Of a stretch of DNA of 33,095 bases, positions 2,852 to 24,925 are shown piece after piece; position 1 is the stretch's first letter, and every line of letters begins with the position of its first letter. A program made the position numbers and the translations under genes. The DNA comes from an uncultured Bacillota bacterium (GTDB lineage Bacteria; Bacillota; Clostridia; Christensenellales; UBA1242), in the NCBI GenBank assembly GCA_947090235.1, contig CAMUNJ010000002.1, positions 1 to 33,095 of the forward strand, in the 5' to 3' direction. A model generated the notes under the pieces. The model had not been told where the DNA came from and did not search any database. It saw only the letters and a list, made by a program, of their open reading frames with translations.

Positions 2852-3425
2852 ATTCTCCTTCTTGATTAGTTTGATTTTTTCGTTCCAGATATTTTTGATA
2901 TTGGACATTGATTTCCGCTCTCCAGTCGGTAGCAAGTGAATAATACTCATCCTGTGTCTTATATATATCTGGGCTTATATTGCCATTTTCATCAACCTTA
3001 CTTAGTAATGTTTCAAGATATTGATTAACATCCATATAAACAGGATATTCTTCATTATCGGCATATACATCAATAGCATCAGCATATTCGTCCCAAGCAG
3101 TATGGAAAGCACCTAACATACCTGCAACTTTCGCACCAAGTCTAGGCTCTTTTTCGATAGCAGGCCAAACTTTGATAAGTTTTTTGAGGTTTTTTGCAAG
3201 AGCAACTGTGTTAGCACCTTTATTATAAGCAAATTTATCTCTTGATAAAAGATCTCTAATATCTGGGTCAAAGTCTTCGCTGTCAATATTGCCATGGTTT
3301 TTAGAAATCTCATACATCGCACGAAGAGCTTGAATATTATTTGCTTTATATCTTCTTGATGCAGGGTTGATATCTGTGTGAGTGCTTACTAATTTTTCAT
3401 TATAAGGTTTGTTAAAAATTACCAT
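2850..3425 (-). CDS. Hypothetical protein (191 aa)
   Basis: ORF 2850..3458. AGAGGTG SD precedes the internal ATG at 3425 (MVIFNKPY..). The track ATG at 3458 overlaps the -10 box, so it is unlikely to be the start. No family recognised. Confidence 0.55.
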   Translation of the reverse strand: MVIFNKPYNEKLVSTHTDINPASRRYKANNIQALRAMYEISKNHGNIDSEDFDPDIRDLLSRDKFAYNKGANTVALAKNLKKLIKVWPAIEKEPRLGAKVAGMLGAFHTAWDEYADAIDVYADNEEYPVYMDVNQYLETLLSKVDENGNISPDIYKTQDEYYSLATDWRAEINVQYQKYLERKNQTNQEGE

Positions 3426-3456
3426 ATTTACACCTCTAGTTTGATTTTTCATCCAC

Positions 3457-3539: not shown

Positions 3540-5075
3540 ATGTTTAAAGGTTTTGGGCGTGGTGCTATCGCTTTAATTATAAGCGGTTTTGTCTGCAAAT
3601 TCTTTGGTGCGTTGTTTAGATTGCCATTAACTTCAATTCTCGGTATTCAGGGAATTGGCGTTTTTCAAATGGTTATGTCTTTATATTCCTTGGCTTTAGT
3701 TTTTGTGACTGGTGGAGTGACAAACAGCCTTTCTCAACTAGTTTCTTCGGCACGGGCAAGAGGAGAAGGCAACAAAATTGGTGATTATTTTAGGCTTTCA
3801 ATTATTTTGACAACTTCAATTGCTCTTTTGATTGGATTGATATTTTTTATTTTGGCAGATAATATTTCGCATGTTCAGGGGGTAAGTGAAGGGGCTTTAT
3901 CTTACAAACTTTTTCTTGTTTTAATTCCTATTGGTGCTTTTATTGGTGTATTGCGAGGTATAATTCAAGGGTATGAAAATATGGTTCCAACAGCAGTTAG
4001 TCAAATTATAGAGCAGGTTTTTAAACTTGTTTTAGGTTTGGCTCTTGCCTATATATTTGCTAAACGCAGTGTGGCAAGCGGTGTTTTTGGTGGATTTTTA
4101 GGCATAACTTTAAGTGAACTTTTGGCATTTATATATCTCGGCATTGTGACGCTTAAAAGAATTAAGTTTGACACTCCTGTTCAAAAGGGGAATTTTCCTG
4201 TTTTGATAGGAGCAATTGTACCTCTATCTTTGAGTGGAGCAGTTATACCTTTTACTCATGCATTTGATAGTTTGGTTATTGTTTCTAGGCTTATGAAAGC
4301 AGGTTTTTCTAAAGAACTTTCAACCTCTCTATTTGGTCTTCAAACAGGAGTTGTGGGAGCAATTTTAAATTTTCCTTTGATTATTTCTCTTGCCCTTGCA
4401 ATGACGCTTCTTCCAAAAATTTCTTACCTTTCTTCTAAGAGAGATTATGAAGGACAGAAAGAGATAATTAAAAATTCTTTTATTGCTATGTGGGCTGTTG
4501 TGCTGCCATTGACATTTGGAATTGTTGCAATAAGCAGGGATTTATATCTAACTATTTATCCAACAACAATTGGTACATTACTTCCACAGGCAATGGAACT
4601 TACTATGCTTGGTGGCGTCAGCATAATTTTAACGGCCATCATGCAATTTTTGCTTTCAATTTTGCATGCGAGAGGATTTTTTATTTATTCCTTTATAGCT
4701 TCGGCTATTGGGGGGCTTGCTAAAATTATTTTAGTTTATACTTTGGCGGGTACAAGTCCTATCAATATTTTTGCTATTCCAATATCTAATATTGTGCTTG
4801 CGATAATAGTCTGTATAATGGTTTTGATCAAATTGGGAGGGCTTGTTAAAATTCCAGCTTTTTATATTTTGACACCTCTTCTTGCGTCAATAATTATGTT
4901 TTTATTAGTTAAACTTTTTGCAACTGTAAGTTTATCGCATTTATGGATTATGATTTTGGGTGTCTTGATTGGCGGAGTTAGTTATTTTATTTTTGCTTTT
5001 CCTGTGCTTCGAGGTTTGTTTTTAAGATTTTTCGGCAAAAACAAAAGTGAGGAGCAGGAAGGTGAAAAAAAGTGA
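3540..5075 (+). CDS. MOP-superfamily polysaccharide/lipid II flippase (MurJ / SpoVB / Wzx-like), polytopic membrane protein
   Basis: 511 aa and very hydrophobic throughout with many predicted TM segments. The N-terminus (GAIALIISGFVCKFFGALFRLPLTSILGIQGIGVFQ) is typical of this family. Confidence 0.7.
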   Translation: MFKGFGRGAIALIISGFVCKFFGALFRLPLTSILGIQGIGVFQMVMSLYSLALVFVTGGVTNSLSQLVSSARARGEGNKIGDYFRLSIILTTSIALLIGLIFFILADNISHVQGVSEGALSYKLFLVLIPIGAFIGVLRGIIQGYENMVPTAVSQIIEQVFKLVLGLALAYIFAKRSVASGVFGGFLGITLSELLAFIYLGIVTLKRIKFDTPVQKGNFPVLIGAIVPLSLSGAVIPFTHAFDSLVIVSRLMKAGFSKELSTSLFGLQTGVVGAILNFPLIISLALAMTLLPKISYLSSKRDYEGQKEIIKNSFIAMWAVVLPLTFGIVAISRDLYLTIYPTTIGTLLPQAMELTMLGGVSIILTAIMQFLLSILHARGFFIYSFIASAIGGLAKIILVYTLAGTSPINIFAIPISNIVLAIIVCIMVLIKLGGLVKIPAFYILTPLLASIIMFLLVKLFATVSLSHLWIMILGVLIGGVSYFIFAFPVLRGLFLRFFGKNKSEEQEGEKK

Positions 5076-11956: not shown

Positions 11957-12463
11957 ATGATAATTTTAGATTGTTATAGAGATTTATGGTTGGCTGATAA
12001 TATAAAAGAACAAAAATTTATTGGTTTTTATCCTAGAGAGTTCTTTTGTTTTGATAATTTTTCATCGTTTGGATTTATTTATAGGGGTATTAAATATCCA
12101 ACAGTGGAGCATGCATACCAAGCAATGAAATTTGTTGATACTGCACCAGAAATTGCAATGCAAATCACAGAGTGTTTGTCAGCAGATCAGGCAAAAAGAA
12201 TTGCTTTTGCAAATCAAGATAAACAAAGAAAAGATTGGAAAGTGGTTAATGTTTCAATTATGGAAGAGTTGTTAATAGCGAAATTGGAACAAAATCCATA
12301 TGTAAAACAAAAACTCCTTGAAACAAAAGATTATATAATTTGTGAAGATAGTCCAAAAGACGATTTTTGGGGGATTGGGCCAAATAGAGATGGCAGAAAT
12401 GAACTTGGCAAACTTTGGATGAAATTGAGGAATGAATTGAAAGACCAAACGGAGAAAAAATGA
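11957..12463 (+). CDS. NADAR-family protein (YbiA/DUF1768-like)
   Basis: FYPREFFCFDNFSSFGFIYRGIKYPTVEHAYQAMKF and DDFWGIG..GRNELGKLWM match the NADAR domain pattern. Confidence 0.75.
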   Translation: MIILDCYRDLWLADNIKEQKFIGFYPREFFCFDNFSSFGFIYRGIKYPTVEHAYQAMKFVDTAPEIAMQITECLSADQAKRIAFANQDKQRKDWKVVNVSIMEELLIAKLEQNPYVKQKLLETKDYIICEDSPKDDFWGIGPNRDGRNELGKLWMKLRNELKDQTEKK

Positions 12464-14223
12464 TTAAAGAAGAAATTGAAAATTTATTGAATGAGGCGTG
12501 CAAAAAGGCAGGACTACAAGATGCTGAAATGAAAGTATCTTTTTCTAATCTGCCTGAGCTTTGTGATTTTCAATGCAACAATGCTTTTGCACTTGCTAAA
12601 AAAATTGGCAAAAATCCACTTGAAATAGCAGAAACAATTGTCAATAATATTGAAGAAAACGAAATTATAACTGTTGAGGCTGTTAAACCTGCGTTTATCA
12701 ATATAAAACTCACACAAAAATCACTCGAGAAGGTGGCTGAGGAATGTTTAGTAGCAGAACTTGGCGGACTTGAAAAACACAAAAATACAAAAAAAATCAT
12801 TATGGATTATGGTGGTGCGAATGTTGCAAAAGCATTACATATGGGGCATTTGCGTAGTCCTATAATTGGTGAGGGTTTGAAGCGACTTTATCGTATTTTT
12901 GGTGATGAAGTAATCTCTGATGTTCATCTTGGTGATTGGGGACTACAAATGGGTTTGACTGAACTTCAATTAAAGCTGGACGGAGTTTTAGACTATTATT
13001 TTACTGGGAAAGGAAAAGAGCCAGAAATTACTTTAGATATGCTTAATGAAGCCTATCCAAAAGCAAGTGCAAGAAAGAACGAAGATAAAGAGTTTTTAGC
13101 ACAAGCCGAAGATATTACATTAAAAATTCAAAAGAAAGAAGAGCCATATTTTACAATTTACAAGAAAATTCGTGAAGTTTCAGTTTCAAAAATTAAACAA
13201 CATTATGGCGAGCTAGGGGCAACTTTTGATCTTTGGTATGGCGAAAGCGATGCAAGTAAATATATTGACAGGGCAGTTAATCTTTTTGTTGAAAAAGGTT
13301 TGACTCGTGAAAGCGAAGGGGCTTTAATTGTTGATGTAGCCAGAGAGGGGGAACATATTCCAATTCCAAAGAAAAATCCTGATGACCCTCAAATGTATAA
13401 AAATCCTATGCCTCCTGCAATTATTAAAAAGCATAATGGGGCAGATCTTTATGCGACAACAGACATTGCAACAATTTTGATGCGTAATGAGAATTATAAC
13501 AATGTTGATGAAATTCAATATATTGTTGATAATCGTCAATCACAACATTTTACTCAGGTTTTTCGTTGTTGCAAACTTTCTGGCATTTCTCCAGAAAAAC
13601 AAAAACTCACTCATATTGGCTATGGTACAATGAATGGTGCAGATGGCAAACCTTTCAAAACTCGCAGTGGTGATACAATTAAACTTGAAGATATTATCAA
13701 TATGCTTGTAGAAAAGGCTAGCGAAAAATTAAAATCTAATGGGGTTGAAGTTAGTCGTGATTTAGCATTAAAAATTGGTGTTGGAGCAATGAAATTTGGC
13801 GACCTCTCAAACACAATTGCCAAAGATTATGTTTTTGATCTAGATAAATTTCTTGCTTTTGAAGGTAAGACTGGGCCATATATTCAATACACTGTTGCTC
13901 GTATAAACTCAATTTTAAACAAGGTAGATATTGAGGGTGGAAAAATTCAAATTGAAGATAAAGAAGAACACGACATAATTTTAGCAATTTTAAAACTTAT
14001 AAATGCTTATGAGATTTGTTATCAAGATCGCTCACTCAATGCTCTTTGTTTGGCGTCTTATGATTTGGCATCCGCTTTTTCAACTTTCTATAACAATCAC
14101 CACATTTTGAATGAAAGTGACAAAGAAAAACAAGCAAGTTATGTTTCACTTCTTAAACTAGTTAAGAAAGAGCTGACTCAAGCACTTAATGTTTTGGGAA
14201 TTGAACTTCCTGAACGCATGTAA
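12460..14223 (+). CDS. argS: Arginine--tRNA ligase
   Basis: MDYGGANVAKALHMGHLRSPIIGE (HIGH-type motif), GADLYATTDIATI, and a C-terminal DALR-type anticodon-binding region ending ..GIELPERM. ATGA overlap with the NADAR gene. Confidence 0.9.
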   Translation: MIKEEIENLLNEACKKAGLQDAEMKVSFSNLPELCDFQCNNAFALAKKIGKNPLEIAETIVNNIEENEIITVEAVKPAFINIKLTQKSLEKVAEECLVAELGGLEKHKNTKKIIMDYGGANVAKALHMGHLRSPIIGEGLKRLYRIFGDEVISDVHLGDWGLQMGLTELQLKLDGVLDYYFTGKGKEPEITLDMLNEAYPKASARKNEDKEFLAQAEDITLKIQKKEEPYFTIYKKIREVSVSKIKQHYGELGATFDLWYGESDASKYIDRAVNLFVEKGLTRESEGALIVDVAREGEHIPIPKKNPDDPQMYKNPMPPAIIKKHNGADLYATTDIATILMRNENYNNVDEIQYIVDNRQSQHFTQVFRCCKLSGISPEKQKLTHIGYGTMNGADGKPFKTRSGDTIKLEDIINMLVEKASEKLKSNGVEVSRDLALKIGVGAMKFGDLSNTIAKDYVFDLDKFLAFEGKTGPYIQYTVARINSILNKVDIEGGKIQIEDKEEHDIILAILKLINAYEICYQDRSLNALCLASYDLASAFSTFYNNHHILNESDKEKQASYVSLLKLVKKELTQALNVLGIELPERM

Positions 14224-14330
14224 CGAACCAGATGTTCGACGATTTTCAATGGGGTGTATTTGAAACTCAAGCCATAATTAATTCACCCTCGAACTAGATG
14301 ATGCACGACTAAAAAGGTGCATAATGCACC

Positions 14331-14358
14331 AAAAAACACGGAAATCTCCGTGTTTTTT
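14331..14358. terminator. Bidirectional terminator between argS and the convergent 310-aa gene
   Basis: aaaaaacacgga-aatc-tccgtgtttttt: 7-bp stem, 4-nt loop, A-run and T-run on either side. Confidence 0.8.
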
Positions 14359-15289
14359 ATTGTTGTTGACTATTTGATGCTTCAATTGTATCATATTTTG
14401 CAAGCATAATTTCTTTTAAGTGATTAAATTCATCTTCATCTAAGTTTGTAAACGTATATGAACAATCTCTGCTACAATTCGACACAAAATAGTTGGTCAA
14501 ACAATTATTTTCGTCAATTGTAAATGAAAAGGTTTGGCGTTGAAGGTTTGGAGATCCTCGATCTATTGGGCACGTGGTTGAAATAGTTAAAGTTTCATTT
14601 TCGTTTGAGAGTGAGATTGTTTCAGTGTCGTCCACTACAAAATCGGGCAGGAAGTTGTAAATGTTGGTCTTATAACTCATAGTATTTGTATAACGACCAT
14701 ATAACTCACCTTCACTTGTTATTGTTTGAGTGTCAAATCTTATTGGAGTTCCAGTTTGAGCTATAAACGCAGTTGCAGGCTTGCTTGCTGCTTGATAAAA
14801 TTTTTTGTCTGAAATGCTTTCATAAACGCTATAATAGTCTTTATTTCCTTCCTTGGCTTTTATTTCTGTTTTAGTCCATGAATAGCCATCTCCATATTTT
14901 TCAACACCTGAAGACCCAAGTTTTAAAAAGTTTGAAGATTCAAGAGTGTTGTCGAATGCGATATACAGAATTTTATTAACGGCAGCTTGTTGAACATCAA
15001 ACAATCTTTCTTCTACATGTTCTTTTGCACGAGAGTTGTATGGCTTTATTAATTTATTAACCTTTGTTTTGATTTGGTCAGCAGCTTCTACAAATTCAAA
15101 AATGTCATCAATTTCAGTTATAGTTTCTTTTTTATCAATTAATTCTTGGATAATCGCATAGGATTGTTCGTATGCTTTTGCTTCTTGTTTTTTGATTGCA
15201 GAATTAATGCCTACAAAAATAAAAATTCCGCCAATTATTGCTGTAGACAAGCCTAAACATAATCCTGTCGTTATTTTGTCTTTATCCAT
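14357..15289 (-). CDS. N-terminally membrane-anchored extracytoplasmic protein, unknown function
   Basis: AGGAGG SD. N-terminal TM GLCLGLSTAIIGGIFIFVGI followed by a hydrophilic Ser/Thr/Asn-rich domain with several Cys near the C-terminus. No family recognised. Confidence 0.7.
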   Translation of the reverse strand: MDKDKITTGLCLGLSTAIIGGIFIFVGINSAIKKQEAKAYEQSYAIIQELIDKKETITEIDDIFEFVEAADQIKTKVNKLIKPYNSRAKEHVEERLFDVQQAAVNKILYIAFDNTLESSNFLKLGSSGVEKYGDGYSWTKTEIKAKEGNKDYYSVYESISDKKFYQAASKPATAFIAQTGTPIRFDTQTITSEGELYGRYTNTMSYKTNIYNFLPDFVVDDTETISLSNENETLTISTTCPIDRGSPNLQRQTFSFTIDENNCLTNYFVSNCSRDCSYTFTNLDEDEFNHLKEIMLAKYDTIEASNSQQQ

Positions 15290-15333
15290 ATTTTACCTCC
15301 TAAATTTAGATAAAAAAGTTATCCACAATTCCT

Positions 15334-15357
15334 ATTATACTCGGGGGGGGGTGTCAA
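15334..15357 (-). promoter_or_regulatory. Promoter with consensus -35 and -10 hexamers separated by a homopolymer-dominated 12-nt spacer
   Basis: Reverse complement reads TTGACA-CCCCCCCCCGAG-TATAAT. It is followed ~40 nt later by AGGAGG and the ATG of the 310-aa gene. Confidence 0.55.
15343..15351. repeat. G9 (C9 on the coding strand) homopolymer inside the promoter spacer
   Basis: Nine consecutive G read directly from the sequence. By eye this is the longest G/C run in the AT-rich window. Confidence 0.95.
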
Positions 15358-15499
15358 GCCTTTTTTGAAATTTCTTTAAAAAATTTGAAGTTTTTATGTA
15401 AAATTATGGGAAAATAGACTGTTTTATCAACAAAAGGCAGATATTTATATTTCTAATTTTAGCGGTCTGAAAATATTTTAAAAATTTTTAAAAAAGGTA

Positions 15500-15528
15500 T
15501 TTACATTTGCTCAAAAGTGTGCTATAAT
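15500..15528 (+). promoter_or_regulatory. Strong sigma-70-type promoter with extended -10
   Basis: TTTACA (15500-15505), 17-nt spacer, TGcTATAAT (15520-15528). Confidence 0.65.
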
Positions 15529-15553
15529 ACAAGCATAAATGGAGGAAATAATT

Positions 15554-20236: not shown

Positions 20237-20326
20237 ATGAAAACAAAATTGTATAGTATGTTAATTATCCTTGTTTCCCTTCTGCTGGGTGCAGGAAGTG
20301 CATTCTTGGCGGGGGGGGATTTTTAA
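20237..20326 (+). CDS. Signal-peptide-encoding 5' exon-like ORF of the GLUG surface protein, out of frame with its body
   Basis: AAGGA SD and ATG 20237. MKTKLYSMLIILVSLLLGAGSAFLAGGDF* is a classic n-h-c signal peptide that runs through the G8 tract and stops at 20324-20326. Confidence 0.6.
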   Translation: MKTKLYSMLIILVSLLLGAGSAFLAGGDF

Positions 20327-23015
20327 CTCTCTAAAAAATGATTTGTCAACAAATGCGGCATGGCCTAATCCAACAAATAGCGGAAATTGGATAGATAATT
20401 GTAGCACTTCTATTTGGGCAGGAGAAGGTACTTTTAGAGATCCTTATTTGATCACCTCTGAAAAAGAATTAGCCGCAGTAGCATATAGAGTAAATCAAGG
20501 CCAATATTCTGATTGTGTTTTTAGATTGACAAAAAACCTGGATATGAAAGATTATTATTGGACACCGATTGGAACAATAACAAATACATTTCAAGGTAGG
20601 TTTTATGGTAAAAATTATACAATTTCTAATATTTATATAAACTCCAACGCAAATCTTGGTTTATTTGGTGTGATAGAAGAGGCCATTATTGGTGATGTGG
20701 TTGTTGAAAATTCATATATTCGAGGAACTACTTTTGTAGGCGGAATTATAGGAAATGCTTCTTTTGCGTGTTTAATTTCTAATTGCCATTTTAAAGGTGG
20801 AGAAATCAGTGTTTCATCAGATTTTGCTGGTGGAATAGTTGGACGTATTACTGCATTTAAAGATAGTAATATTGCAGGGTGTGTAATAGAACAATGTTCA
20901 AATAGTGGGAAATTGACGCGAAATGGCGATGGCAGATATGTCGGAGGAATAGTTGGATATTTTATTGGCTCAACAAATTTAGATGACGATTCTTTTATAA
21001 TGAATTGTTATAATAGGGGACTTATAGAAGGATATAATTATGTAGGAGGGATAGTTGGCTATATTACTAATTTGTTTTTGGTAGCCAATTGTTATAACAC
21101 AGGAAACATTATGGCAGCCACAATTTGTGGTGGAATTGGAGGAAGTTCAGCAAATTTAAACGCTAATTCAAAGATAGTAAATTGTTATAATGTCGGAAAT
21201 ATTTTAGGAAATTCGTCTGCAAGGGCAATTATAGGTAGTAGTACTTCTCTTTTATTAAGCAAGTGCTATTTTGGAGGAAACTGCGATCTTACATCTCCAG
21301 GTGGAAGTTCCGCTAGTACTATAGGAAAAGTTACTATGGAGCAAGTAAAAGTCATTACATGGTATAGAACGTCTTCAAATTGGGATAGAGAATATCCTTG
21401 GGATTTTGTTAATGTTTGGGAGATATATAATGGGCATAATGATAACTTTCCAATCTTCATAATTGTTAGTACTTTGACAATAAATCCAAATGGAGGGAGT
21501 TGTCAAGGAGATTCTTCTGTACAATCAATCACAAAAGCAAATGATTATGTTTTAAATTTGCAAAACCCTATTCGAGAAGGGTTTAATTTTGCTGGTTGGA
21601 AGTTGGAGTATGGTGGTAATTTAGTTTCTGGAATGCCTGCCAAAGGAGGCTTTACTACTAATTCTAGAGTTGATAATGATGGAAGTGTTTACATGAATTT
21701 CCATGGTGAATATGATAAACCTTCTTCAAGCCAATGGCTGACCTGTATGTTTGATAAATATACTTTTGTTGATGGTCATGAATATCAAATAAGTTATGGT
21801 GTTCGAATAAATACCTTGCAAGGTGGTGTTGGTATAGATTTTCGTCACTCAAGGCTAGAAAACGATTGGGCTACACCTTGTGGTAATACTTTTTATGGAA
21901 AAACAAATGGTTGGAAGTATTATGAAATGTCGCAAGTATTATATACAAGTTGCGATTTAGGAGAGACTAATCCCTTGTTTGCAATATGGACAGGAGATTT
22001 AAAAAATTCAACAGAAAATAAAATCATCTATGATTTTGATTTAAAAAATATTGTTATTATGGATGTGACAAATAATACTATAGCATGGACTAGTCAAAAA
22101 TTTACTTTTGGGCAAAACGATGCCACTCTAACTGCTCTTTGGGTGGAAAAAACATGGGATCAATTTGCAGCAGACTCATATGCAGGCGGAAGTGGAACTC
22201 AAACAGATCCATACACAATCGCAACTGCTGAGCAATTAGCAAAACTTTCTAAGGATAGTATGAAAAACTCATTTGAAAATGTTTATTTCAAGCAAATAGA
22301 CAATATTGATTTAAATGCTCATTTTTGGAGCGGAATAGGTGTAACTTCAGATAGACCATTCAAAGGAAATTATGATGGTGGGATGCATTTTATTGCTAAC
22401 CTTAGAATGTATCAAACGGGTGCTGTAGGATTGTTTAATGTGACTGAATCTGCCATAATGTCAAAGATACATCTAATTGATAGTGAAATAAAAACTATAA
22501 GAGGTGATGCTGGAGGTATTGTAGGAATAAATGGTGGTACTAGTGGGGCTAATCCATCTATTGTACAAGATTGCATTGTAGAAAGATCAACAATAATTTG
22601 TGAGGATAAAACTTTTGGTTCAATAGGAGGAATTTCTGGTGCATGGGGGCAGGTTAAAAATTGTATAGTTAAAGATAGTACAATAGATGGCGACTGGGCT
22701 GGAGGAATCTCAGGATATAACCCTATTATGACAAAGGATTGCTCTGCATTAAATGTGACAATAATTGGAAGATCAGAAAAGCAAATTGTTTCTAGAGTAA
22801 AAAATAATATTCAATCTTGTTATGGATATGGAAGTATAAATGGAGCATCTGTTAAAGTTTTGTATGGGGATTCTTCTGTTTGGGGGAATTGGAGTTATAC
22901 TGCAAATATAAATAATGGTTATCCACTTCAAAACAACCTTTTCTGGGTAGTAGGGCAAAGCGGAAGCGATAATGTTTATAACTATCTCAAAAATCTTGGA
23001 TTTAGTGATGGGTAA
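20271..23015 (+). CDS. Large secreted/surface protein with two GLUG-motif (beta-helix-like) repeat modules and a Listeria-Bacteroides (InlB B-type) repeat; frameshifted from its signal peptide
   Basis: Repeated ..NCYN.G.I.G...VGGIVGY.. units. Two module heads: GTFRDPYLITSEKELAAVA and GTQTDPYTIATAEQLAKLS. LTINPNGGS..PIREGFNFAGWKL. The track start is a TTG with no signal peptide. Confidence 0.7.
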   Translation: MFPFCWVQEVHSWRGGIFNSLKNDLSTNAAWPNPTNSGNWIDNCSTSIWAGEGTFRDPYLITSEKELAAVAYRVNQGQYSDCVFRLTKNLDMKDYYWTPIGTITNTFQGRFYGKNYTISNIYINSNANLGLFGVIEEAIIGDVVVENSYIRGTTFVGGIIGNASFACLISNCHFKGGEISVSSDFAGGIVGRITAFKDSNIAGCVIEQCSNSGKLTRNGDGRYVGGIVGYFIGSTNLDDDSFIMNCYNRGLIEGYNYVGGIVGYITNLFLVANCYNTGNIMAATICGGIGGSSANLNANSKIVNCYNVGNILGNSSARAIIGSSTSLLLSKCYFGGNCDLTSPGGSSASTIGKVTMEQVKVITWYRTSSNWDREYPWDFVNVWEIYNGHNDNFPIFIIVSTLTINPNGGSCQGDSSVQSITKANDYVLNLQNPIREGFNFAGWKLEYGGNLVSGMPAKGGFTTNSRVDNDGSVYMNFHGEYDKPSSSQWLTCMFDKYTFVDGHEYQISYGVRINTLQGGVGIDFRHSRLENDWATPCGNTFYGKTNGWKYYEMSQVLYTSCDLGETNPLFAIWTGDLKNSTENKIIYDFDLKNIVIMDVTNNTIAWTSQKFTFGQNDATLTALWVEKTWDQFAADSYAGGSGTQTDPYTIATAEQLAKLSKDSMKNSFENVYFKQIDNIDLNAHFWSGIGVTSDRPFKGNYDGGMHFIANLRMYQTGAVGLFNVTESAIMSKIHLIDSEIKTIRGDAGGIVGINGGTSGANPSIVQDCIVERSTIICEDKTFGSIGGISGAWGQVKNCIVKDSTIDGDWAGGISGYNPIMTKDCSALNVTIIGRSEKQIVSRVKNNIQSCYGYGSINGASVKVLYGDSSVWGNWSYTANINNGYPLQNNLFWVVGQSGSDNVYNYLKNLGFSDG
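20311..20318 (+). repeat. G8 homopolymer at the signal-peptide/mature-protein junction
   Basis: Eight consecutive G read directly from the sequence. G7 or G10 would join frame 20237 to frame 20271. Confidence 0.95.
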
Positions 23016-24876: not shown

Positions 24877-24925
24877 CTATTATATAGAAATTGGGTTTTG
24901 TTGTCAAGAGTTTTTTTAAAATTTT

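Follow-up and report, generated by a model that had tools for sequence, protein, structure and literature searches.

A putatively collapsed homopolymer-spacer promoter from an uncultured gut Clostridia bacterium belongs to a recurrent class with candidate slipped-strand-mutable spacing

To our knowledge, repeat-driven phase variation has been catalogued almost wholly in pathogens, among them species of Neisseria, Haemophilus, Campylobacter, Helicobacter, Treponema and Mycoplasma. Invertible promoters are the established paradigm among gut commensals. In the vlp system of Mycoplasma hyorhinis, a poly-A tract occupies the spacer between the -35 and -10 hexamers, and the promoter-leader module that contains it is common to divergent surface-protein genes. 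In Bordetella, transcription of the surface protein genes fim2 and fim3 is modulated by a poly-C tract in the promoter. The poly-G tracts of Campylobacter jejuni have a modal length of about 9.

For Neisseria meningitidis, one account places a poly-G tract between the -35 and -10 hexamers of porA, the expression of which falls below a spacing of 17 nt, and describes a poly-C tract in the promoter region of opc that modulates transcription of this surface protein gene (PMC7864442). The tp0126 gene of Treponema pallidum also carries a poly-G tract between -35 and -10, with an optimum at 17-nt spacing, and the tract of tprL contains 7-11 G in vivo, the vast majority having 9 G (PMC7864442). Two further accounts describe the phasome of C. 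jejuni, a low-GC genome with many G/C runs of 8-11 nt, both intragenic and intergenic, that are tied to surface structures (PMC8355987, PMC6321876).

The promoter described here lies in the window, a stretch of 33,095 nucleotides (33% G+C) from an uncultured gut Clostridia bacterium. Read directly from the window, the reverse complement of 15334..15357 is TTGACACCCCCCCCCGAGTATAAT, which on the minus strand (15357..15334) resolves into TTGACA-CCCCCCCCC-GAG-TATAAT. The -35 hexamer (15352..15357) and the -10 hexamer (15334..15339) are both exact, matching the sigma-70/sigma-A consensus at 12 of 12 positions. Between these recognisable elements, upstream of a gene, lie a C9 homopolymer (15343..15351; G9 on the plus strand), which adjoins the -35 hexamer with no intervening flank, and the trinucleotide GAG (15340..15342), which represents the conserved right flank of the tract. 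The spacer measures only 12 nt, and thus falls outside the 17 ± 1 nt expected of sigma-70/sigma-A promoters. A TG extended -10 element is absent, the three bases 5′ of TATAAT being GAG, and the hexamer spaced 17 nt from TATAAT, AAGGCT, was rejected as an alternative -35 element, as its two of six matches are not credible. On the upstream side, the -35 hexamer is abutted by an A/T-tract UP-like element, AAATTTTTTAAAGAAATTTCAAAAAA, followed by GGC (15361..15390, minus strand). On the downstream side, the RBS AGGAGG (15296..15301, minus strand) precedes an ATG at 15289, with 44 nt separating the -10 hexamer from the start codon. An earlier reading of the sequence had described these elements in the same terms, namely exact hexamers around a C9 tract in a 12-nt spacer, followed by AGGAGG and the ATG of a 310-aa ORF (14357..15289), and each of them is present as claimed. 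Runs of G or C of at least six nucleotides occur only three times in the window (G6 at 4710, the C9 tract and G8 at 20311), and a search of both strands for exact TTGACA-N(8-22)-TATAAT pairs revealed only one besides this promoter, at 24907..24879, with a 17-nt spacer. The placement of exact hexamers around a 9-nt C run at 33% G+C is far beyond chance.

The intergenic region (15290..15553) carries two divergent promoters, the second of which, TTTACA-17-TG-TATAAT (15500..15528, plus strand), drives a 47-aa ORF that has a separate GGAGG. One A/T-tract signature, with AAAAAAGG at its end, precedes each of the two promoters. Their UP-like elements correspond to I1 (15359-15386 / 15470-15497), an imperfect inverted repeat that is A/T-rich and 79% complementary. 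Because the A/T signature is common to both, the UP/-35 half of the poly-C promoter looks genuine, and the signature 'AAAAAGG(G)C-TTGACA' recurs in many members of the promoter class described below. An invertible promoter was considered and rejected, since no inverted repeats enclose the hexamers and I1 is the only repeat nearby. About 70 nt further upstream than the poly-C promoter lies an alternative promoter-like site, TTGATA-16 nt-CATAAT (15403..15430, minus strand), which has 10 of 12 matches and whose sequence is kept in the mouse-gut MAG MGBC129253 (L001).

At the predicted transcription start of the poly-C promoter is a perfect DnaA-box 9-mer, TGTGGATAA (reverse complement TTATCCACA; 15319..15327, minus strand), the only perfect one in the window. 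It is kept in four other loci (L004, L272, L018 and L185) and has one mismatch in L001. A promoter-leader module of about 90 nt that includes the box is common to the 310-aa gene and to unrelated genes in L018 and L185, and the box may represent an operator. An Rfam search of the intergenic region returned no family, the only signal being sub-threshold rimP-leader noise at the terminators.

The orphan ORF governed by this region (14357..15289, minus strand) encodes 310 amino acids, with an N-terminal hydrophobic anchor at about residues 8-29, a predicted helical segment after the anchor and a β-rich, Cys-containing C-terminal part. Two tandem terminator-like hairpins lie 3′ of it (14316..14358, minus strand), the first of which is also usable by the convergent argS. 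No Pfam family matches the protein, and only two clusters of homologues, at 99% and 60% identity, were found among 5.8 billion proteins; when 1.84 billion representatives were searched exhaustively with HMMER, the sole addition was one marginal match (E=7e-4). Its AlphaFold2 model is unreliable (mean pLDDT 46). An exact look-up of the 220-aa neighbour returned no record. The product had initially been termed a surface protein. Its hydrophobic anchor makes that assignment plausible, although a surface location is unproven and these searches yielded no homologue of established function.

Together with its terminators and promoter region, the 310-aa gene forms an accessory, recently exchanged cassette (14224..15469) that is present or absent between strains. 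In L148, the flanks of which are 99.3% identical to those of the window, the cassette is missing and argS is joined to 15470 via 32 unrelated nt; L270 and L271 also lack it, and in such cassette-less strains argS is directly followed by the region of the 47-aa gene. A further copy of the 310-aa gene, in L003, lies downstream of tRNA genes and has an unrelated upstream region. Between the window and MGBC129253, which represent two species-level lineages, the cassette (~14200-15420) is 99.7% identical whereas the flanks share only 80-90% nucleotide identity (about 89% in one comparison), a disparity suggestive of a recent horizontal transfer or recombination event. Of the 11 differences within the cassette, seven are concentrated in the 32-nt promoter core (15321-15352). 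Relatives also differ in the gene that lies upstream of argS, which encodes a NADAR-domain protein in the window (11957-12463) and a HAD-family hydrolase in MGBC129253 (L005, 5827-6486), and this marks a variable spot within an otherwise syntenic recR ... argS ... rpmG-secE-nusG-rplK region.

Comparison of the spacer in related genomes, which had been proposed as a check on the locus, revealed that the tract is not invariant at nine. L001, L004 and L272 carry TTGACA-AAT-C9-GAG-TATACT, with a 15-nt spacer, and the protein encoded by L004 is only 60% identical to that of the window. In L146 and L147, the promoter reads TTGACA-C10-GAG-TATAAT, with a 13-nt spacer. L147 is identical to the window across 1006 nt save for one additional C, and L146 across 1329 nt save for one additional C and one SNP. 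Tract length thus differs, C9 against C10, between otherwise identical or near-identical genomes, in a contrast that rests on short contigs (L146 at ~2x coverage; L147 a 1-kb Logan contig) in which homopolymer miscalls are possible. L002, which is 97% identical to the window over 5.8 kb, contains TTGACA-ATCA-C6-GAG-TATAAT, also with a 13-nt spacer; its ATCA-C6 differs from C10 by substitutions and is unexplained by slippage. The spacers of the window lineage are therefore 12, 13, 13 and 13 nt in four independent assemblies. None of these alleles has an ON-length spacer (16-18 nt), the ancestral form being of 15 nt, and no C13-C14 allele was found among those observed at the locus. Because of this comparison, and because the differences cluster in the promoter core, the 15-nt AAT-C9-GAG-TATACT form appears to be ancestral and conserved, with the window lineage probably derived from it by loss of AAT after the -35 hexamer. 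The window spacer would accordingly be a derived, shortened and locally fast-evolving version, and its TATAAT would stand in place of an ancestral TATACT.

The architecture is not confined to this locus. In a first scan, which covered a single genome for each species, the pattern GCTTGACA..C5+..GAGTATA retrieved GCTTGACA-NNN-C9-GAG-TATAAT from five other low-GC gut MAGs, where it stands ahead of unrelated genes; one of the matches lies on a second contig of MGBC129253. Other runs of at least 7 nt in those loci, on which the scan had not been ascertained, are also exactly 9 long and also lie in promoter spacers, and they occur both ways, some as G9 and some as C9 in promoter sense. A looser scan of species-representative genomes with TTGACA-N(0-6)-C(8+)-N(0-6)-TATAAT returned at least 119 loci. 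The matches listed derive from many uncultured Clostridia, Eubacteriales and Firmicutes MAGs from rabbit, mouse and other guts, and also include Mucispirillum, Saccharibacteria, Gastranaerophilales and others; among them, several MAGs hold at least four class promoters each.

Because the looser scan demanded exact hexamers and C8 or longer, the statistics of the class are ascertained on those features. Among the matches listed, the loci below 42% G+C (n=69) comprise 45 with C9, 19 with C8 and 5 with C10, and none of these low-GC members exceeds C10, though the pattern allowed longer tracts. Their spacers, again among the matches listed, measure 15 nt in 28 loci, 14 nt in 3, and the functional 16 and 17 nt in 25/69 and 4/69, respectively. 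Within the narrower A(A/T)T-Cn-GAG class, the tract is C9 in 13 of 14 promoters. Flank and tract lengths show partial compensation, in that a flank total of 6 with C9 gives 15 nt, 7 with C9 gives 16 nt and 8 with C8 again gives 16 nt. The left flanks range from 0 to 6 nt with varied bases, and the tract has a stereotyped position about 3 nt past the -35 hexamer. Tract length also differs between orthologous promoters (C9 and C8 in L222 and L242), and in the pair L173 and L213 the spacer is kept while the edge of the tract mutates.

An RBS-preceded ORF lies within 300 nt of 68 of the 76 class promoters, the median distance from the -10 hexamer to the start codon being 30 nt. A hydrophobic N-terminus is predicted for 33 of these 68 downstream ORFs, compared with 77 of 238 background ORFs (Fisher p = 0.02), and lipobox-like motifs are found in 13. 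About half of the downstream genes are without an export signal, and these encode orphan or DUF proteins.

Several individual loci illustrate the range of the architecture. Mucispirillum spp. contain many promoters of the form TTGACA-(A/T)T-C9-(A/G)TGA-TATAAT, with a 15-nt spacer and a TG extended -10 (L170, L171, L177, L181, L191, L204, L218, L223, L253, L254 and L259), most of which precede lipoprotein-like genes with MKK...C starts. In L031, a poly-C promoter and a ~225-aa orphan gene have been tandemly duplicated, both copies (3404-3430 and 4356-4382) having C9. Paralogous copies in a Bipolaricaulota MAG differ in tract length, C9 against C12 (L174 and L207). These loci and one in a high-GC MAG (L152) place TTGACA...C9-C12...TATAAT promoters in high-GC genomes as well, and such examples indicate that the architecture reaches beyond low-GC gut bacteria. 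Scans of other collections added no members: among 93 matches to the locus pattern in metagenome contigs, in a scan that also missed the JGI contig of L002, none belongs to this family, and the four matches in viral contigs, three of them identical C7 tracts in contigs of 32-34% G+C, do not have the family architecture. In the open-access subset of the literature, we found no account of such promoters in either uncultured gut Clostridia or Mucispirillum, nor any of phase variation in the latter genus.

The spacing of ordinary promoters in this lineage provides a reference for these values. A census of ~84 kb revealed a peak at 16-17 nt, with 21 and 26 sites compared with about 12 in shuffled sequence. 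This peak contradicts a lineage-specific liking for short spacers. Given the preference of ordinary lineage promoters for 16-17 nt, a promoter with a 12-nt spacer is expected to have little or no activity, as the sequence-only reading had predicted.

The window contains a second G/C tract in a different type of control position. A G8 run on the plus strand (20311-20318) separates a 27-residue signal-peptide-like start from a 914-aa ORF (20271-23015) encoding a GLUG/Flg_new (Listeria-Bacteroides-repeat) protein. Translation from the ATG at 20237 (region 20237-20330) would yield the signal-peptide-like MKTKLYSMLIILVSLLLGAGSAFLAGG, and a stop follows G8. The run thus lies near the 5′ end of the gene, where a change of one nucleotide in either direction alters the frame: a G7 tract would fuse the start to the ORF in frame, producing a protein of 925 aa, and G10 would do likewise (926 aa). 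G8 is therefore a candidate intragenic phase switch assembled in its OFF frame, or else a homopolymer miscall. The protein collection contains no near-identical allele of the GLUG ORF, the next match covering 25% of the query at 50% identity. The GLUG homologue of MGBC129253 is without an intragenic tract and instead has G9 in its promoter spacer (L001, 1039-1047), in the arrangement TTGACG-C-G9-ATTTGC-TATACT with a spacing of 16 nt. Between these homologous genes, the control position occupied by the repeat thus differs, which supports the view that this organism uses G/C runs as contingency sites.

These findings are consistent with the poly-C promoter belonging to a class of slipped-strand-mutable promoters recognised by the housekeeping sigma factor, of which the window copy would be a collapsed allele, predicted to be silent; we regard this reading as evenly poised between being right and being wrong. 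A promoter of this class would consist of an A/T-rich UP-like element, an exact -35 hexamer, the C tract, an exact -10 hexamer, a short conserved leader and an RBS. Slipped-strand mispairing at the G/C run in replication would render the distance between the hexamers mutable, and the gain or loss of one C would move the spacer between 15 nt, which is predicted to be poor, and 16-17 nt. Expression of the downstream accessory gene would consequently vary heritably but reversibly within a population. We infer slippage as the mutational mechanism, spacer length as the determinant of transcription and an off state for the present allele, the ON and OFF assignments being drawn from the general spacing rule together with the census. 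Because the census peaks at 16-17 nt, members with 15-nt spacers are predicted to be weak and those with 16-17 nt strong. The approximately even split of the class between 15 nt and 16-17 nt is what would be expected of loci toggling by single-base slippage, and the tight mode at 9, taken from consensus assemblies that give only the modal tract length, is compatible with a mutational equilibrium. Counting against the switch reading, the 15-nt spacing of roughly half the class is not one that ordinary promoters use.

By the same reasoning, the window copy would represent an ancestral AAT-C9 switch that has lost 3 nt behind the -35 hexamer, and its tract would still slip, as C9 and C10 alleles suggest. 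At a spacing of 12-13 nt, the two hexamers would not be contactable together, leaving the promoter silent and three to five steps from an ON length. The occurrence of 12-13 nt in every assembly, with no alternative -35 and no extended -10, thus leads to the designation of a collapsed switch that is predicted to be silent. Transcription of the 310-aa gene, if any, would then originate from the upstream TTGATA-16-CATAAT site. The original proposal that tract length gates transcription of this gene is borne out in so far as the tract varies and the class is recurrent, but this copy, 3-5 nt short of ON, is not a one-step switch. The accompanying suggestion that the true tract is longer and had been under-called is difficult to sustain, as the omission of at least four bases is unlikely given concordant C9 and C10 calls in independent assemblies.

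Other explanations must be weighed against a collapsed allele. If the true tract were about C13-C14, or if that length were easily reached, the promoter could be a working one-step phase switch, and the gene would toggle in this strain. Such a switch would fit the exact hexamers, the mutability of the tract and the existence of class members with 16-17 nt, but none of the four independent assemblies of the sub-lineage nears 16 nt, the low-GC class is without tracts longer than C10 among the matches listed, and the short spacer is accounted for by the missing AAT flank rather than by under-calling of the tract, such that we consider a one-step switch decidedly improbable. Somewhat different is the idea that C9 acts as a fixed cis element, either a regulator site or a rigid G/C spacer setting promoter strength or supercoiling sensitivity, whose length is selected. 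The uniformity of the tract, C9 in nearly all A(A/T)T-Cn-GAG promoters and in all three divergent lineages of the locus, would fit a selected element too, as would the tight length distribution with its mode of 9 and the stereotyped placement about 3 nt past the -35 hexamer. However, the run occurs in either orientation, its left flank measures anything from 0 to 6 nt and the bases around it vary, orthologous promoters include variants with C8, C10 and C12, and tract and flank lengths trade off in a manner that holds 16 nt. Sequence-specific recognition of poly-C is weakened by the members in G orientation, and we are aware of no factor in bacteria that recognises poly(dG).poly(dC) specifically, which we count against a fixed element; overall, this explanation seems unlikely.

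A similarly low likelihood is assigned to the view that the differences in length reflect errors of sequencing or assembly, with no variation in vivo, and that the accessory cassette contains a dead promoter relic inactivated by mutation. Homopolymers are error-prone, the C10 alleles come from a contig of ~2x coverage and a 1-kb Logan contig, and the cassette is dispensable, as its absence from L148, L270 and L271 demonstrates. Nevertheless, C10 is agreed by two independent samples, the loss of AAT and the change between TATACT and TATAAT are not homopolymer errors, and the differences cluster in the promoter core of a cassette that is otherwise nearly invariant between the window and MGBC129253; across the class, moreover, 8-10-nt G/C runs are enriched in genomes of 30-35% G+C. 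A NovaSeq poly-G artefact or an assembly chimera was also considered, and was ruled out by reasoning from the internal position of the 9-nt run, the conserved hexamers at a fixed distance and the many independent studies and assemblers involved. Finally, a mere coincidence of hexamers and C run without promoter function has a negligible probability in our estimation, given that the window holds only two exact hexamer pairs, that the architecture is kept while the downstream proteins have diverged to 60% identity, and that more than 100 other loci display it at a fixed distance from RBS-preceded genes.

Beyond the preferred reading, a collapsed allele of a slippage-mutable class, lies a broader proposal that we advance tentatively, as one that may well be correct without being probable. 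A large, undescribed 'phasome' might exist among gut anaerobes, Mucispirillum and uncultured low-GC Clostridia included, made up of promoters with the form UP element-TTGACA-~3 nt-C/G(8-10)-3-4 nt-TATAAT, several to many per genome, which would toggle between 15 and 16 nt around an equilibrium tract length of nine and drive cassette-exchanged orphan, lipoprotein and membrane-protein genes. The window would then contain one collapsed switch beside an intragenic G8 switch. The architecture, a G/C run within a promoter spacer, is easily searchable and occurs in dozens of uncultured Clostridia MAGs as well as in Mucispirillum. If the proposal is true, many strict gut anaerobes would hedge the expression of accessory envelope genes by slipped-strand mutation, which would bear on strain-level heterogeneity in microbiome data and on how host and phage pressure on gut anaerobes is read. 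It would also bear on MAG annotation, as frameshifted or 'promoterless' genes may represent OFF states.

Among known systems, the class appears on sequence grounds to be of the porA and tp0126 type, with the window copy as a degenerate member. As in porA, a G/C homopolymer resides in a sigma-70-type spacer, where the length of the porA tract sets the distance between -35 and -10. Unlike porA, the promoters described here belong to Gram-positive-type gut Clostridia, both hexamers are exact and the modal tract of 9 corresponds to spacings of 15-16 nt; the 12-nt allele of the window lies outside any functional range. The mode of 9 is shared with tprL of T. pallidum, for which length heterogeneity and its effect on the promoter have been measured, whereas both are deduced here. 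In the tprL and tprE, G and J system, the tprL tract lies just upstream of the transcription start, whereas here it occupies the centre of the spacer. In opc the tract overlaps the -35 element, and in the fim genes it lies between the activator (BvgA) site and the -10 hexamer; the present tract is situated strictly between two intact hexamers. The ~90-nt promoter-leader common to the 310-aa gene and the genes of L018 and L185 resembles the vlp module, although the vlp tract is poly-A, is much longer and serves a lipoprotein gene family, whereas the genes downstream here are unrelated orphans. As in C. jejuni, the window also has an intragenic frameshift candidate, G8. The tracts of C. jejuni are mostly intragenic, in contrast to the class described here, for which the recurrent position of the homopolymer is the promoter spacer.
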